A stretch of 64,000 nt of DNA, from sequence record PQ306573.1; one strand, 5' to 3'. The DNA comes from Escherichia phage vB_EcoM_PTE-Eco05. Below the pieces are notes generated by a model, which was not told the DNA's origin, did no database searches, and saw only the letters and a list, made by a program, of their open reading frames with translations. The position numbers and the translations under genes were made by a program. This document shows, piece by piece, positions 5,333-11,333 of this stretch (position 1 is its first letter; the number at the start of each line of letters is the position of its first letter).

Positions 5333-5968
5333 ATGAAAACTACACCAATCACTATCGCTATTGACGCAATCGTAAAACAAGCTTCATCTCTTGCCACTAT
5401 GGCTAAAGTAATTAGTCAAAACCCTGCTCGGTATAATGCTATTCTTGAAACTCTTCGTCGCCCTGGACTGAGTAATTATGAAAGTCGTGTAATTATTACA
5501 GGTGTTGGTAAGAACGCTAATATCGCAACTAAAGCTTCCGAGACTTTTGCTTCACTAGGTATTCCTAGCATGTATTTGAACACTGGGCATTATTCTCATG
5601 GTGACGCAGGATTTATTGCACCTAATGATGTATTAGTTCACATCAGCCGTTCTGGTAAGACTGAAGAAATGATAGGTGTTGCTAAACATCTTCGTATGAT
5701 TCGTCCTCAGGTTAAACAGATTCTGTTACATTGTAACCCTGACATTCCACAAGAATACGAAGCTCTTTTTGATTATACGTTCTGTACTGGTATCGCGGTA
5801 GAAGTTGACGAGAACTCTTTAGCTCCGACAATGTCTACTACATTGTTGTTAGCGCTTATCGATACGTTCGCTATCAACCTTTCGTCTGAACGTGGATTTA
5901 CCTCTAATGATTTCCTTAAGTTCCATCCAGGCGGTGCACTAGGTGCCATGTTACGAGGCGAACAATGA
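5333..5968 (+). CDS. SIS-domain sugar-phosphate isomerase (KpsF/GutQ arabinose-5-phosphate isomerase-like)
   Basis: 211 aa; SIS-type Rossmann pattern (VIITGVGKN, HISRSGKTEE) and C-terminal HPGGALG typical of KpsF/GutQ-type isomerases. Confidence 0.7.
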   Translation: MKTTPITIAIDAIVKQASSLATMAKVISQNPARYNAILETLRRPGLSNYESRVIITGVGKNANIATKASETFASLGIPSMYLNTGHYSHGDAGFIAPNDVLVHISRSGKTEEMIGVAKHLRMIRPQVKQILLHCNPDIPQEYEALFDYTFCTGIAVEVDENSLAPTMSTTLLLALIDTFAINLSSERGFTSNDFLKFHPGGALGAMLRGEQ

Positions 5969-6149: not shown

Positions 6150-7835
6150 ATGAAAAAAGCTGTTATTCTTGGTGCTGGACTGGCAACTCGTTTGTATCCA
6201 ATAACGCATCATATTCCTAAGGTGCTTGTTAACTATAAACAAGACACTATTCTGAGCAATTTGTATACAATTTATTCTGACCTTGGCGCAGATGAAATTA
6301 TTGTAGTAGTTCATTCAAAATTTGCTGAAACTGTTCGAGCTTATTGTGAGCAAGAAGGGTTCAATGTGACTATTCGTACAGTTGATGAAGCGTATGGTTC
6401 TGCTTATGCTCTTGCTAAATTACACAAAGATTTAGACGGCCATAATGTAATTGTTAACTGGTGTGATATTATTCCCGATTTTGGTTCATGGTCTTGGAAT
6501 GTTAACGCAATCTATGTTAAGGGTGATGAATGTCGGTATAATTTCGATGGTGAAAATATCACTAATGTAGGTGAAACAGGCGGTAATGTTGTAGGAATTT
6601 ATCAGTTCAAAGACTGGGAATTCTATATGGGTTCTACCGATGAGGAAATTCATGAATACTGCAAAGGACGTGATTTCGTAGAATTCCTTTACGGCAGCAC
6701 ATTCAATAAATCAGAGCTTATGAATCTAATTGATTTAGGTGATATGCCTAAACTTGAAAAGGCCCATGAAGTTCGTGAACTGAACCGTAGTTTTAATGCA
6801 GTTGAAATTGGCGAAGAAACTGTAACTAAATTCGCATTAACCGAACAGGGTCGAGCTCTTCAGAAAGATGAGATTTCGTGGTATTTGAAAGTGAAATCAG
6901 ATTCAGTTCCTCAGTTAGTTTCTGTTAATGAAAATAACTTTGAAATGGAACGCATTAAAGGTAAGCCGGCATTTGAATATATTAAATCAAAATCAAGTCT
7001 TGCTCGTCCACAAATTATTGATGCAATTTTAGATGCACTGAAATTCAGCACAGACACTTATTTTGTAAGTCCTGAAACTGTTCGTCGTGATTTCACTAAA
7101 GAATTCTATACGAAAGTTATTGATCGTTGTGAAAGCATTCAACCATTGATTGATTCATTTGGTAAAATCACACATGTGAACTACACTAAGATTGGACGTC
7201 TGAAGCCAATGCTGAAACAAGCTTTAGAACACCTTATTCGTTATCATAACCGTTCTCAGGGACAGTACTCTGTTATTCATGGTGACCCGAACTTCAGTAA
7301 TACTATGATTACTGATAACGGCGAAGTCAAGTTTATCGACCCTCGTGGATATTTTGGCGAAACCAAGATTTACGGGCCAAAATTGTATGATGAAGCTAAA
7401 GTGCTTTACGCTGTTTCAGGTTATGATGAATTCAATGCTAATCCGACCTGGGGACAGTTTACTATTGATGAAACAACTTGTAATGTGACTATTAACATCA
7501 ATCCATTAGTTTACAAATATGGAAAGATGAGTTCGTTTAACGAGTATCATCATTTGGCAGTGGCAATTATCTGGATTGCATTAGGTGGTTATTTCAAGAA
7601 TAATCCACTTAAAGCGGTAGCCGCATATTATAAAGGTATGGAACTTCTGACTAAGCAATTACGTAATATGGGCCGTGTACTTCAAGACGGCTCTATTAGT
7701 TATGACGTAGCAGAACCTGTAACGGCTACTCTGATTACAAAAAATCCTGGTAAATGGGTACTAACTGATAAAGAAACTGGTGTTTCCTATCGTCCAATCG
7801 GTGGCGATATCACTCATCAATGGGAACGAATCTAA
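6150..7835 (+). CDS. Bifunctional sugar-1-phosphate nucleotidyltransferase (N-terminal) / APH-choline-kinase-fold sugar kinase (C-terminal)
   Basis: 561 aa; N-terminal MKKAVILGAGLATRLYPIT..PK.LV nucleotidyltransferase signature; C-terminal HGDPNFSNTMI...FIDPRGYFG kinase catalytic loop (Brenner HGD..N plus D). Confidence 0.7.
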   Translation: MKKAVILGAGLATRLYPITHHIPKVLVNYKQDTILSNLYTIYSDLGADEIIVVVHSKFAETVRAYCEQEGFNVTIRTVDEAYGSAYALAKLHKDLDGHNVIVNWCDIIPDFGSWSWNVNAIYVKGDECRYNFDGENITNVGETGGNVVGIYQFKDWEFYMGSTDEEIHEYCKGRDFVEFLYGSTFNKSELMNLIDLGDMPKLEKAHEVRELNRSFNAVEIGEETVTKFALTEQGRALQKDEISWYLKVKSDSVPQLVSVNENNFEMERIKGKPAFEYIKSKSSLARPQIIDAILDALKFSTDTYFVSPETVRRDFTKEFYTKVIDRCESIQPLIDSFGKITHVNYTKIGRLKPMLKQALEHLIRYHNRSQGQYSVIHGDPNFSNTMITDNGEVKFIDPRGYFGETKIYGPKLYDEAKVLYAVSGYDEFNANPTWGQFTIDETTCNVTININPLVYKYGKMSSFNEYHHLAVAIIWIALGGYFKNNPLKAVAAYYKGMELLTKQLRNMGRVLQDGSISYDVAEPVTATLITKNPGKWVLTDKETGVSYRPIGGDITHQWERI

Positions 7836-8221
7836 TGCACCGTGTAGAAAACATGCTTAATCTTTGTTTTGATGTCGATGATTGTATAACAGAGTGGAAT
7901 AACAATCGTGATTACGTGAACTTCAAACCAGACGTCGAAATGGTGTCTGCCATTAATGCTCTGTATGATGCAGGGCATACCATAACGCTTTACACTGCTC
8001 GCGGTATGAAGTCAGTAGGTCCTGGTCGTATAGCAATTGACATTCTCCCAAGTCTGATTCAGAACTTGGCAAACATTGGCTTGAAGTACCATAATTTGCT
8101 AACACATAAACCAGTATATGATTGGATTATCGACGACAAAGCTATGCGTCCTGACGAATTCAAAGCTCTTATGAATAAAGGCGAATTCGAAACATTTAAA
8201 TCGTATAAACCGAATCTATAA
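7820..8221 (+). CDS. HAD-superfamily phosphatase (KdsC-like small sugar-phosphate phosphatase)
   Basis: N-terminal FDVDDCIT (DxDx[TV] motif I of HAD enzymes); start may instead be the ATG at 7835 overlapping the upstream stop (TAATG). Confidence 0.6.
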   Translation: MGTNLMHRVENMLNLCFDVDDCITEWNNNRDYVNFKPDVEMVSAINALYDAGHTITLYTARGMKSVGPGRIAIDILPSLIQNLANIGLKYHNLLTHKPVYDWIIDDKAMRPDEFKALMNKGEFETFKSYKPNL

Positions 8222-8269: not shown

Positions 8270-9439
8270 ATGCAAAAAATGAATACTTTTAAAATCGGAA
8301 CGAATTTTGATTTAGCTCTTCTTGATAAAATCGTAGAGCTCAATAAAACTTATCCTAATAGCTTGATAAATGAAGTATACGGCTCTACAAGAGAAATGGC
8401 TTTTGTAGCAGCCAGACCTGATTTTAGGCTTCCTGACGTTGACAAAAAGATGTTAGAAGATTACGTTAAACGTTGTAACGAATTAGGTATTTGCTTTAAC
8501 TATACACTCAACACGATAAATCCTGGTTCAAAAAGAGAACTAGTTGAGTGGAAGAAGAAAGCTATTCAGGATTATGTTCAGTATCTTTGGTCAATAGGCG
8601 TATGGCGTATTACTATCGCTAACCCTGTTGTTATGGAAATTGTTCGTGAAGTCAATAAAGACATTGAGATTGAAGTTTCAACAATTCTACATGTCGATGC
8701 TGTAACTCAAATCAAATACTTGCATGACCAGTATAATATCAAAAAGGTCTGCTGTGGAATTCATAAGAACCGTTCAGTTTCTTTCCTGAAGCGTGCAGCA
8801 GAGTTTTGCAATAAGAACAATATAATATTTGAAGTTCTTGTAAATGAGTTCTGTTCTAATGCTGGTAAAGGGTATACAACACATTGTAGCTATCGTGACT
8901 CTTGCTATATTTTCCATAGTACTGATGTTACAGCTGATGATGCTAAATCCTTAAACGGATATCCTATGCAGCACTGTATTAAAGCTCGTGATACAGACCC
9001 ATTTAACTGGTTGAGAACTCGTTTTGTTCGTCCTCAAGATTTGAAACTTTATAATGATATTGGTATCACTCAATTCAAAGTTTCAGGACGTACAGGTAGC
9101 ACAGACTACATTTTGAAAGTTCTTGAAGCATACGCTTCTGAAAAGTTTGAAGGTAATTTGTTAGAACTGTGGAAGCCTTTAGAGACTATTTTCACTCTTG
9201 AAAACGAAACTGAGTTTTCACATACAGTAAATATTGAAACCTCTTTGTTAGATGGCTTTTTAGAAAAAAGGTGGTTCAGACATCCAGATTTCGATTGTGC
9301 TAATGAAATCTGCGGGACGACGTGTACATATTGTGAAAGATATTATAAACGTCAATTATCTAAAAACGGGTTAGCAGAAAACTCTATATCTATTATTGAT
9401 ATAACTAACTCTGATGACGCTTTGAGGTACCCGGAATGA
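8270..9439 (+). CDS. Cys-rich protein, possibly a TIM-barrel Fe-S enzyme (U32-peptidase-family-like); function unknown
   Basis: 389 aa; alternating beta/alpha-like N-terminal pattern, conserved Cys clusters (EFCSNAGKGYTTHCSYRDSC; CANEICGTTCTYCERYY); family assignment tentative. Confidence 0.5.
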   Translation: MQKMNTFKIGTNFDLALLDKIVELNKTYPNSLINEVYGSTREMAFVAARPDFRLPDVDKKMLEDYVKRCNELGICFNYTLNTINPGSKRELVEWKKKAIQDYVQYLWSIGVWRITIANPVVMEIVREVNKDIEIEVSTILHVDAVTQIKYLHDQYNIKKVCCGIHKNRSVSFLKRAAEFCNKNNIIFEVLVNEFCSNAGKGYTTHCSYRDSCYIFHSTDVTADDAKSLNGYPMQHCIKARDTDPFNWLRTRFVRPQDLKLYNDIGITQFKVSGRTGSTDYILKVLEAYASEKFEGNLLELWKPLETIFTLENETEFSHTVNIETSLLDGFLEKRWFRHPDFDCANEICGTTCTYCERYYKRQLSKNGLAENSISIIDITNSDDALRYPE

Positions 9440-9717: not shown

Positions 9718-10434
9718 ATGGGAAAACATAACACAATGAAATATATCAAAGCCGCAGATTTTCAAGCCGCATTTAAAGCAGTCAATCGTGAAATTTTAGA
9801 AAACCCGGAATTCGTAACTGATTCTCGTATTGGACGTTGTAATGAAATTGGGTCTATGACAGTAGTTGTTGACACTCCATCATCATTCAAAATGACCGAC
9901 CCACGTATTAACCGCATCTCTTATGAATATGCCGAAGACTTCTGGAAGTTTATGATTTCTGGTGGTACCAACGCAGAAGAAGCGTTTAAGGCATATCCTA
10001 ATGTCGCTAAATTTATTTCTAAACCAAAATCAGATGTTTTGCCGGCGAACTTCAACACTTTCTATGGTCCTCGCATTGCGGCCCAATTACCAGCTCTTCT
10101 AAAAGAACTTAAAGAGAAGCCTAACTCTCGAAGAGTTGTGTTCCAAATTCTAGAAAGTTCTGATCAGGCTTTGCTTGATTCAGACGAAACGCTTGAATAT
10201 CCATGTACTGACTCAGTGACTTATTATATCCGTGATGGTAAGCTTTATACCCACTGTCATATGCGTTCTCAGAACTGCGCTGTTGTTATGCAGTTGGATT
10301 TTTATCTCCAAGGAAAATTACTTCATTATATCGCTAACGAATGCGGTGTAGAAGTTGGTGATTATACTCATACCATGGTAAGTGCCCATGTGTTTGAACG
10401 TGATTTTGATTATGTTAAAGGATTCCTTGACTAA
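9718..10434 (+). CDS. 42: dCMP hydroxymethylase-like enzyme (thymidylate synthase superfamily), gp42 position
   Basis: 238 aa; TS-fold catalytic region YPCTDSVTYYIRDGKLYTHCHMRSQN (active-site Cys, RSxD-like); located between gene 43 block and uvsX as T4 gene 42. Confidence 0.7.
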   Translation: MGKHNTMKYIKAADFQAAFKAVNREILENPEFVTDSRIGRCNEIGSMTVVVDTPSSFKMTDPRINRISYEYAEDFWKFMISGGTNAEEAFKAYPNVAKFISKPKSDVLPANFNTFYGPRIAAQLPALLKELKEKPNSRRVVFQILESSDQALLDSDETLEYPCTDSVTYYIRDGKLYTHCHMRSQNCAVVMQLDFYLQGKLLHYIANECGVEVGDYTHTMVSAHVFERDFDYVKGFLD

Positions 10435-11333
10435 TGGCTATTTTCCGCGTACCAATCTTGAGTATGCGGTCTTATGAAACTGGACAGTATGCTATCCTTA
10501 AGGATGGCAACTTCCAACTTCATTTGCACCGTGCTAATCCGGGTGATGTGATTACATATCCACGTAATGCATCTGATATTAAAGAATGCGAACGTCTTTT
10601 TCCAGAATTTAAGTTTGTTCCATTATGGTATAAAGATAACGCGTATAACACTCGTAAATATTTCTGGTCTGAAAATGAATTTGTGGTTGATTCATTAATT
10701 GCTTATTATGATTGTGATTTTCTAATCACAGATATCACTGGATATGACGGCGCTTTTGATGTGGAATTCAATTTCAATATCACTGCAGACCCTAATAAAC
10801 CACGTTTTTATATTGACGAATTCTTAAAAACTGATATGTTGTCGGTTAATCGTTCACTTCAAACTACTGTGTTGAATGAACGTCAAAAAGAAGTGCTGGT
10901 TAACGCAGGTGCAGATGGTAATAAGATTATCGTAACGCAGAAAGTTATACGTCCTTCCATCATGCAGCGTCTTGTAGGTGATTTGGCTCCTATTTATCTA
11001 GATGGTATTTTTCATCCATTTCGAATTAGTGACCCGTGCTATCGTTTTGAACAAGTGGTTGAATGTGCAATTCAATTAGGCCAACCGCTTTATATAACCG
11101 ATCCAAATAATAGCTTCGACAGAAATAAGTATCCTGAAGAAGCGCTGATTCGAATTTTTAAACCAACTAAAACAGAGTACTATCAAATTCTTAAAGGGCG
11201 TCCTAAAATTCAATATTTCGAAAATCCTGAAGAAGTATTCCATCCAGGTCTTGGTGAGTTCATCTACTTTAATGCTTTAATTTCTTCGCCGTATAATATA
11301 CCTAAATATGAAGATGTCGTAATCGAGGAATAA
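10434..11333 (+). CDS. Hypothetical protein occupying the T4 beta-glucosyltransferase slot; candidate DNA-modification enzyme
   Basis: 299 aa; start overlaps gene 42 stop; no similarity to T4 beta-gt that I recognise. Confidence 0.55.
   Translation: MAIFRVPILSMRSYETGQYAILKDGNFQLHLHRANPGDVITYPRNASDIKECERLFPEFKFVPLWYKDNAYNTRKYFWSENEFVVDSLIAYYDCDFLITDITGYDGAFDVEFNFNITADPNKPRFYIDEFLKTDMLSVNRSLQTTVLNERQKEVLVNAGADGNKIIVTQKVIRPSIMQRLVGDLAPIYLDGIFHPFRISDPCYRFEQVVECAIQLGQPLYITDPNNSFDRNKYPEEALIRIFKPTKTEYYQILKGRPKIQYFENPEEVFHPGLGEFIYFNALISSPYNIPKYEDVVIEE

Follow-up and report, generated by a model that had tools for sequence, protein, structure and literature searches.

A U32-family protein in the DNA modification module of an RB69-like coliphage as a candidate oxygen-independent deoxycytidylate hydroxylase

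Known U32 hydroxylases and the modified DNA of RB69

The closest described systems to the one considered here are prephenate-dependent hydroxylases of the U32 family in Escherichia coli. For UbiU/UbiV, Fe-S proteins that hydroxylate ubiquinone without O2, isotope labelling has identified prephenate as the oxygen donor, and the proposed mechanism is a two-electron oxidation of the ring followed by a prephenate decarboxylation that delivers hydroxide (PMC10990095). RlhA-dependent formation of 5-hydroxycytidine (ho5C) requires prephenate together with Fe-S biogenesis (PMC5727448), and the prephenate-dependent TrhP and the O2-dependent TrhO provide redundant routes to 5-hydroxyuridine (ho5U) (PMC6599085). 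Our subject is a gene of Escherichia phage vB_EcoM_PTE-Eco05 (PQ306573.1), located at positions 8270-9439 of a 64,000-nucleotide stretch of its DNA (the window, below), that encodes a U32-family protein within a DNA modification module. We put it at slightly better than even that this protein is an O2-independent, prephenate-dependent C5 hydroxylase converting deoxycytidine monophosphate (dCMP) to 5-hydroxy-dCMP.

The window derives from an RB69-like Mosigvirus. Its module is 99.2% identical to Shigella phage JK45, and the U32 protein is 99.5% identical to the RB69p050 product, which is annotated ‘peptidase’. RB69 DNA carries mono- and poly-arabinosylated 5-hydroxycytosine (5hoC), a base that is not a hydroxymethylcytosine derivative (Lee et al., NAR 2026, PMC13326640), and the arabinosylated cytidines are linked through an ether oxygen. 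The ThyA homologue gp48 makes 5-hydroxy-dCMP, its preparations carry flavin, and its oxygen comes from 18O2 (PMC13326640); the same paper cites He et al. for in vitro confirmation of O2 as the oxygen source. We propose that the RB69 gp48, DLP3 gp80 and HY126 homologue type of enzyme, encoded two genes downstream of U32, is a functional analogue of the U32 protein that would share its substrate and product. The two differ in that the gp48-type enzyme has an unrelated fold and cofactor, draws its oxygen from O2, and is found in phages of strict aerobes that have no U32 gene.

Family membership and two conserved cysteine sites

The open reading frame (ORF) at 8270-9439 was found on the plus strand as claimed, with an ATG start and 389 amino acids (aa). 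Another ATG in the same frame, at 8279 (MNTFK...), is better spaced for a Shine-Dalgarno interaction, with a GAG about 9 nt upstream; most homologues begin at this codon, and those of other genera align from residues 3-6 on. The spacing and the homologue starts together suggest that 8279 may be the true start, giving a protein of 386 aa, not 389. Purifying selection on the gene is strong, with a nonsynonymous value (pN) of 0.11-0.15 against a synonymous value (pS) of 0.69-0.81.

Membership of the U32 family, which the original prediction had offered as its weakest call, proved correct. Residues 97-289 score 42.2 bits on Pfam PF01136 (Peptidase_U32), whose gathering cut-off is 22.4, and two divergent relatives (loci L042 and L066) exceed it too, with 34-38 bits. 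The suggested TIM barrel was borne out as well, in that a high-confidence predicted model is a (β/α)8 barrel whose best structural match is the U32 structure 5D88. None of the results that the original prediction had named as refuting it, such as confident homology to a structural or unrelated family or cysteine clusters that vary among orthologues, was seen; the comparisons upheld the U32 family and fold. A profile of the phage clade aligned with a small TrhP/RlhA/UbiU profile at 92% probability over 225 columns. Against single E. coli proteins (UbiU, UbiV, TrhP and RlhA, taken from the MG1655 record) its best match of the four was RlhA, at 76.6%, and hhalign with TrhP alone gave 12%. The phage protein nevertheless stands outside the defined subfamilies: it has no match to Peptidase_U32_C (PF16325), the TrhP test, or to DUF3656 (PF12392), the RlhA test, and it scores 18.4 bits against a cut-off of 440 in the NCBIfam quinone_UbiU equivalog test. 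A search of PDB sequences returned nothing with the single sequence and only a spurious BIM1 match with the profile, and PADLOC models matched neither the phage U32 protein nor a cellular U32 homologue.

The original prediction had also pointed to two conserved cysteine clusters. These resolve into two four-ligand sites whose conservation is far beyond chance expectation:

8852-8977, plus strand: putative metal site 1, codons C195, C206, C212 and C236, invariant in 121 homologues and situated in the loop after the seventh strand, where characterised U32 proteins have their [4Fe-4S] ligands

9296-9334, plus strand: putative metal site 2, the clade-specific C-terminal motif C343-x4-C348-x3-C352-x2-C355, invariant in close homologues

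Ten of the 13 cysteines are invariant across 121 homologues, down to about 48% identity. In a 57-sequence alignment 10/13 cysteines are invariant against 47/376 other residues (Fisher p = 4e-7). An exhaustive search of representatives gave 721 clusters at E 1e-10 or better, and conservation of the cysteines was followed into a distant set of 120 full-length representatives at 27-50% identity. At site 1 of this set, C206 and C236 are each conserved in 100% and C195 in 99%, and position 212 holds Cys in 62% of sequences and His in the other 38%; at site 2, C343, C348, C352 and C355 are kept in 93-95% each. The spacing of site 2 is present in 146/241 family members, and the motif does not occur in E. 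coli TrhP, UbiU or UbiV. C161 and C180 are kept in closer relatives only, not family-wide. We take sites 1 and 2 to be candidate metal sites, judging from this pattern of conservation. The spacing C348-x3-C352-x2-C355 would also fit a radical SAM enzyme, a candidate that we rejected: the motif lies in a C-terminal tail with a fourth cysteine, C343, and there is no Radical_SAM Pfam match.

Comparison with the described members places the protein more closely. The strict U32 signature of PROSITE is E-x-F-x2-G-[SA]-[LIVM]-C-x4-G-x-C-x-[LIVM]-S; as a regular expression this pattern fits TrhP, RlhA and UbiU and does not fit UbiV. RlhA (YdcP), which forms 5-hydroxycytidine-2501 of 23S rRNA, shares its Pfam domain with the phage protein, and its product base, 5-hydroxycytosine, is the one we propose here. 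It is unlike the phage protein in acting on rRNA in pre-50S particles, in its length of 653 aa and in its DUF3656 domain. Moreover, RlhA has the strict signature and a canonical CX6CX15CX3C motif, whereas the phage protein lacks one canonical cysteine and has both a clade-specific insertion of about 10 residues in the ligand loop, which carries the fourth invariant cysteine, and the extra C-terminal CX4CX3CX2C. TrhP (YegQ), paired with TrhO, follows the same logic as that proposed here, an O2-free, prephenate-dependent U32 route beside an unrelated O2 route. It differs in its substrate, a tRNA uridine (U34), in its Peptidase_U32_C domain, and in its O2-dependent partner, which is the rhodanese TrhO and, in the phage, would be a flavin-binding ThyA homologue. 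UbiV resembles the phage protein in lying far from the Pfam core (38 bits and 42 bits respectively, against 298 for TrhP and a range of 228-298 for TrhP, RlhA and UbiU) and in not matching the strict signature. UbiU and UbiV reportedly each have one ligand cysteine off its canonical position; they differ from the phage protein in their lipid quinone substrate and in forming a heterodimer with the accessory factor UbiT. Mk0906, the Methanopyrus kandleri U32 protein of PDB 5D88, shows 14% identity, has 247 residues and lacks the C-terminal four-cysteine extension. By sequence, then, the phage protein belongs to the U32 family as a divergent member that carries an additional CX4CX3CX2C site at its C-terminal end.

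Gene neighbours and hosts of the U32 clade

A homology search found a large set of metagenomic relatives at 45-58% identity and about 360 aa, and the scan of viral, genome and metagenome collections yielded 139 loci with 91 non-redundant U32 genes. This 45-58% clade was seen in metagenomes and metagenome-assembled genomes (MAGs) only, and apparently has no cultured phage representative. Genes within 7 kb of U32 were counted in 11 non-redundant T4-like loci and in the 40 divergent loci that extend for at least 4 kb to either side of it:

ThyA-family gene: T4-like 11/11; divergent 2/40
Chorismate mutase: T4-like 9/11; divergent 14/40
3-Deoxy-D-arabino-heptulosonate 7-phosphate (DAHP) synthase: T4-like 0/11; divergent 12/40
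Chorismate mutase and/or DAHP synthase: T4-like 9/11; divergent 16/40
gp46-type glycosyltransferase: T4-like 11/11; divergent 26/40
AfhE-like sugar activator: T4-like 11/11; divergent 19/40
Arabinose-5-phosphate (A5P) isomerase: T4-like 8/11; divergent 14/40
Nucleoside monophosphate (NMP) kinase: T4-like 11/11; divergent 28/40
dCMP deaminase: T4-like 0/11; divergent 6/40

A typical divergent map reads glycosyltransferase, A5P isomerase, AfhE-like gene, in some cases a thymidylate-kinase-like gene, DAHP synthase::chorismate mutase, HAD-like gene and U32. The DAHP synthase::chorismate mutase fusions measure about 350 aa and are encoded two genes ahead of U32 (L042:8332-9387, L040:7302-8357, L037:8411-9433 and L039), and in the L042 fusion both Pfam domains are above their cut-offs. 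A stand-alone DAHP synthase directly follows U32 in L003 and L026 (NCBIfam, 237 bits); L003 also has an AfhE-like neighbour, homologous (E 9e-51) to the protein encoded at 6150-7835 of the window. In Serratia phage LC53, the gene after U32 encodes an AroQ chorismate mutase that scores 44.6 bits for CM_2, where the cut-off is 27. By tblastn this type of chorismate mutase occurs in 54 phage records, where it adjoins peptidase (U32) and thymidylate-synthase genes; among the matches listed, all are T4-like phages of enterobacteria or Shewanella. Shikimate-pathway auxiliary genes are apparently little described in phages.

The U32 gene and the gene for the ThyA-type hydroxylase differ in their distribution. 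Among 50,697 deposited phage genomes, tblastn gave 221 matches to the U32 gene, all at 80% identity or more, and the U32-bearing phages among the matches listed infect enterobacteria or Shewanella only. The ThyA-type hydroxylase occurs in 373 phage records, which include 57 Acinetobacter and 20 Rhizobium phages, and none of these 57 and 20 records shows a U32 gene. In Acinetobacter phage Maestro and Pseudomonas phage PspYZU05 the locus runs straight from the phosphatase to the ThyA homologue, with no U32 gene; that of PspYZU05 includes the arabinose genes. Obligate anaerobes account for most matches to the divergent clade in genome collections (Erysipelotrichales, Oscillospiraceae, Romboutsia, Tannerella and a Phocaeicola faecalis isolate), and one metagenome record of this clade is named human gut.

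Three features of the context, namely the neighbouring chorismate mutase or DAHP synthase genes, the scarcity of ThyA-family genes in the distant clusters and the lack of U32 in phages of strict aerobes, lead us to conclude that U32 probably provides another way, independent of O2, to the same C5 hydroxylation rather than an additional step. The original prediction had suggested a further chemical step on the modified base or sugar, and this needs revision. Acinetobacter phage DLP3 has arabinosylated 5hoC and a cluster with no U32 gene, and Maestro is named among phages containing arabinosylated 5-hydroxydeoxycytidine (5hodC) (PMC13326640). Since such phages make the known product, no extra step is needed, and U32 is not required for that product in air.

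In the window, the gene order runs from the clamp loader and DNA polymerase genes through A5P isomerase, kinase/nucleotidyltransferase, HAD phosphatase, U32, orf79, ThyA homologue, glycosyltransferase and nucleotide kinase to UvsX:

5333-5968, plus strand: arabinose-5-phosphate isomerase (RB69 gp55 orthologue), with SIS domain and KpsF/GutQ/KdsD family matches; role proposed in PMC13326640
6150-7835, plus strand: bifunctional sugar kinase / nucleotidyltransferase (AfhE-like; RB69 gp52:53), role in PMC13326640; NTP_transferase above the Pfam cut-off, C-terminal half with weak kinase-family matches, all below cut-off
7820-8221, plus strand: HAD-type phosphatase (AfhF-like; RB69 gp51), NCBIfam TIGR01689 below cut-off; role in PMC13326640
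8270-9439, plus strand: U32-family protein (RB69p050 orthologue), 389 aa; PF01136
9436-9675, plus strand: orf79 (RB69p049 orthologue, PHROG 8601), a small, cysteine-free protein of 79 aa
9718-10434, plus strand: thymidylate-synthase homologue (RB69 gp48 orthologue), with Pfam and NCBIfam thymidylate synthase matches; product 98.7% identical to RB69ORF048c
10434-11333, plus strand: glycosyltransferase (RB69 gp46:47, putative first arabinosyltransferase), an ORF; role proposed in PMC13326640
11335-11883, plus strand: thymidylate-kinase-like nucleotide kinase (RB69 gp45), an ORF; RB69 annotation and PMC13326640 Table 1

The genes at 6150-7835 and 10434-11333 are each one unbroken ORF here, and RB69 RefSeq splits them into ORF052/053 and ORF046/047; this is consistent with the sequencing errors reported in PMC13326640.

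U32 and orf79 share 4 nt, the stop of the one overlapping the start of the other, and the orf79 product may be an accessory factor. Where orf79 and a chorismate mutase are both present the order is U32, orf79, chorismate mutase, with the same 4-nt overlap and with the mutase abutting orf79 or overlapping it slightly; orf79 stands between the other two in Pectobacterium, Yersinia and Enterobacter-type phages (L014, L019, L022 and L027). We considered whether orf79 is itself a cryptic chorismate mutase and rejected this: it has no Pfam match at E 10, no BLASTP similarity and an hhalign probability of 0.2%, and in some phages the two genes follow one another. In LC53 the chorismate mutase has 114 aa, and its N-terminal sequence, MRRINHTMNEL, is similar to that of orf79, which suggests that the LC53 gene may be an orf79::mutase fusion. 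Two metagenome copies of orf79 are cut to 53 aa.

Other arrangements in the relatives stand apart from the typical map. In two large phage contigs with DnaE polymerases (up to 466 kb; L002:7447-9939 and L004:7504-9826), a dCMP deaminase lies directly upstream of U32, and the substrate there might be deoxyuridine monophosphate (dUMP) rather than dCMP. Both contigs encode a conserved protein of about 250 aa downstream of U32, weakly similar to NAD-dependent epimerases, with uracil-DNA glycosylase and thymidylate kinase nearby. Mobile elements have entered two loci: an IS605 OrfB/TnpB (Cas12f-like) gene between the AfhE-like and U32 genes (L036:8695-9957), and a NUMOD3 homing endonuclease between the phosphatase and U32 genes of Serratia phage LC53 (L001:5352-5990). 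Cellular genomes and MAGs carry a further cassette (L066:3044-7137, L065:6929-11086, L063, L064 and L058), made up of a GP88-family gene (PF17338), a guanylate kinase::S-adenosylmethionine (SAM) methyltransferase, a protein of about 267 aa without Pfam match, and a U32 gene of this clade. Its carriers are the Phocaeicola faecalis isolate, Tannerella, BRC1, Woesearchaeota and Bacillota, and the 267-aa protein is highly conserved between phyla (E 1e-81 to 1e-124). Against PADLOC this cassette gave a generic methyltransferase match only. Its product could be a 5-hydroxylated, then O-methylated nucleotide.

The proposed reaction and its alternatives

From the family, the fold, the conserved ligand-type residues, the gene neighbours and the phyletic pattern, all of which are shown, we infer the metal content of the U32 protein, its use of prephenate, its substrate, its independence of oxygen and its physiological role. 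In the reaction that we propose, the phage dCTPase would provide dCMP, which would bind in the barrel beside a [4Fe-4S] cluster on C195, C206, C212 and C236. The base would undergo a two-electron oxidation, with electrons leaving through that cluster and probably also through the C-terminal four-cysteine site. Decarboxylation of prephenate, with aromatisation to phenylpyruvate, would then transfer its C4 hydroxyl to C5 of the base. Phage kinases would raise the product to 5-hydroxy-dCTP, the polymerase would incorporate it, and the glycosyltransferases would add arabinose. A substrate at the nucleotide level is suggested by the kinase and deaminase neighbours, by the lack of RNA-binding domains and by the phage dCTPase, which removes dCTP.

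The U32 protein would thus do under anoxia what the ThyA homologue does with O2 and flavin, the two being paired as TrhP is with TrhO and NrdDG with NrdAB. RB69 carries the anaerobic reductase genes nrdD and nrdG, so that one oxygen-sensitive step in making precursors is already present in duplicate. U32 would be the only hydroxylase in many phages that infect anaerobes. The prephenate would come from host PheA/TyrA in Mosigvirus, while relatives would bring their own chorismate mutase and distant phages also DAHP synthase. With a length of about 168 kb and a guanine-cytosine content of about 37%, a genome holds roughly 63,000 cytosines, so that a burst would consume prephenate by the million molecules; this may be the reason why phages carry chorismate mutase and DAHP synthase. 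A broader claim goes with this proposal, that the clade represents the first U32 hydroxylases to act on a free deoxynucleotide destined for DNA, that in many uncultivated phages of anaerobes, which bring their own DAHP synthase and chorismate mutase, no other pyrimidine-5-hydroxylase is at work, and that in RB69-like coliphages the U32 protein is the anaerobic twin of the ThyA-type enzyme. We advance it tentatively, at a little short of even.

Several observations weigh against the proposed hydroxylase. The phage protein does not match the strict U32 signature as a regular expression, and the original description of it as ‘loosely resembling’ that signature was accurate; the validated member UbiV fails too, so the signature does not define the whole family. 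Only three of the four site 1 ligand-type residues fall on canonical cluster positions, in a register that depends on the alignment: MAFFT pairs C195/C212/C236 with TrhP C170/C177/C193, and hhalign pairs C206/C212/C236 with TrhP C170/C177/C197. The fourth canonical cysteine position is unmatched. Within the window, an 18-sequence profile of phage chorismate mutases found no such gene at E 10 or less, and orf79 occupies the position after U32. The divergent phages could carry a ThyA-type gene in another part of their genomes, of which about 10 kb on either side of U32 was examined, and the hosts and habitats of that clade are assigned from MAG labels, where binning can err. E. coli Dhakavirus JS98 has the arabinose genes and the ThyA homologue, with a nucleotide-kinase gene after the phosphatase and no U32 gene. 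U32 is therefore neither universal in phages of facultative anaerobes nor indispensable in coliphages that make 5hoC, and since the host of JS98 is a facultative anaerobe, this speaks against a simple host-oxygen rule. As of 2024, no U32 enzyme had been reconstituted in vitro (PMC10990095). The RB69 orthologue, gp50, appears only in Table 1 of PMC13326640, as a putative ‘sugar or heterocycle reductase’ with structural match 5D88, and is neither discussed nor tested there; the Discussion of that paper mentions other routes of pyrimidine hydroxylation in RNA modification and cites the RlhA paper, with no tie to gp50. Our literature search found no paper that links a phage U32 protein to hydroxylation or gives gp50 a function, and very recent work may already assign or exclude a role.

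It is possible that the same prephenate-dependent C5 hydroxylation takes place on cytosine already within DNA, although we think this unlikely. The characterised U32 enzymes directed at nucleobases act on polymers (PMC5727448, PMC6599085), and the C-terminal four cysteines could be a zinc-type element for binding nucleic acids. Yet the C-terminal domains found in TrhP and RlhA are missing from the protein, and its recurrent neighbours work at the level of nucleotides (the NMP kinase in 28/40 divergent loci, the dCMP deaminase, and the guanylate-kinase fusions of the cellular cassettes). Moreover, the RB69 dCTPase removes dCTP, so unmodified cytosine should hardly reach the DNA.

We give an equally small chance to a different step of the pathway, in which the protein would be a reductase or hydroxylase acting on the arabinose or the heterocycle, or would supply electrons to the gp48 flavin. 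The gene does sit between the arabinose-activation genes and gp48, Fe-S proteins commonly carry electrons, and the Table 1 label quoted above points the same way. Such a step would, however, leave the chorismate mutase and DAHP synthase neighbours unexplained, and the Acinetobacter phages reported with arabinosyl-5hoC manage without U32. The abstract of PMC13326640 describes no further modification of the RB69 nucleosides. In particular, a dedicated partner of gp48, such as a flavin reductase, is unlikely, given that U32 occurs with no ThyA-family gene nearby in 38/40 divergent loci and gp48 occurs with no U32 in phages of aerobes.

An RNA hydroxylase like TrhP or RlhA, tuning translation through host or phage tRNA or rRNA and placed in the cluster by coincidence, seems to us improbable. 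The two U32 enzymes known to target nucleobases work on RNA and depend on prephenate, and a chorismate mutase neighbour would fit such an enzyme as well. The phage protein is only distant kin of TrhP and RlhA, however, with neither a Peptidase_U32_C nor a DUF3656 domain, and glycosyltransferase, sugar-activation, NMP-kinase and dCMP-deaminase genes recur beside it across unrelated phage lineages. A genuine protease or collagenase, as the database names ‘peptidase U32’ and ‘collagenase-like protease’ would have it, is highly improbable and we dismiss it: the name is historical, the characterised E. coli members are tied to hydroxylation, the conserved features are metal-ligand-type cysteines in a TIM barrel, and the gene context is nucleotide and sugar metabolism.

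If the U32 protein is the O2-independent dCMP hydroxylase that we propose, it would explain how coliphages whose 5-hydroxycytosine has O2 as the shown source of its hydroxyl, and that destroy their own dCTP pool, can replicate in a largely anoxic gut, and it would predict an oxygen-dependent phenotype for a gene that would be scored as dispensable in aerobic laboratory work. The presence of chorismate mutase and DAHP synthase genes in phages would be accounted for. The small, soluble substrates, dCMP and prephenate, could permit the first in vitro reconstitution of a prephenate-dependent hydroxylation. For phage therapy, the proposal bears on whether Mosigvirus-type phages retain a protective DNA modification at anoxic sites of infection. 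Moreover, prephenate-dependent U32 chemistry would extend from RNA and quinones to DNA precursors and viruses, and glycosylated 5-hydroxypyrimidine DNA would be widespread among the uncultivated phages of anaerobes.

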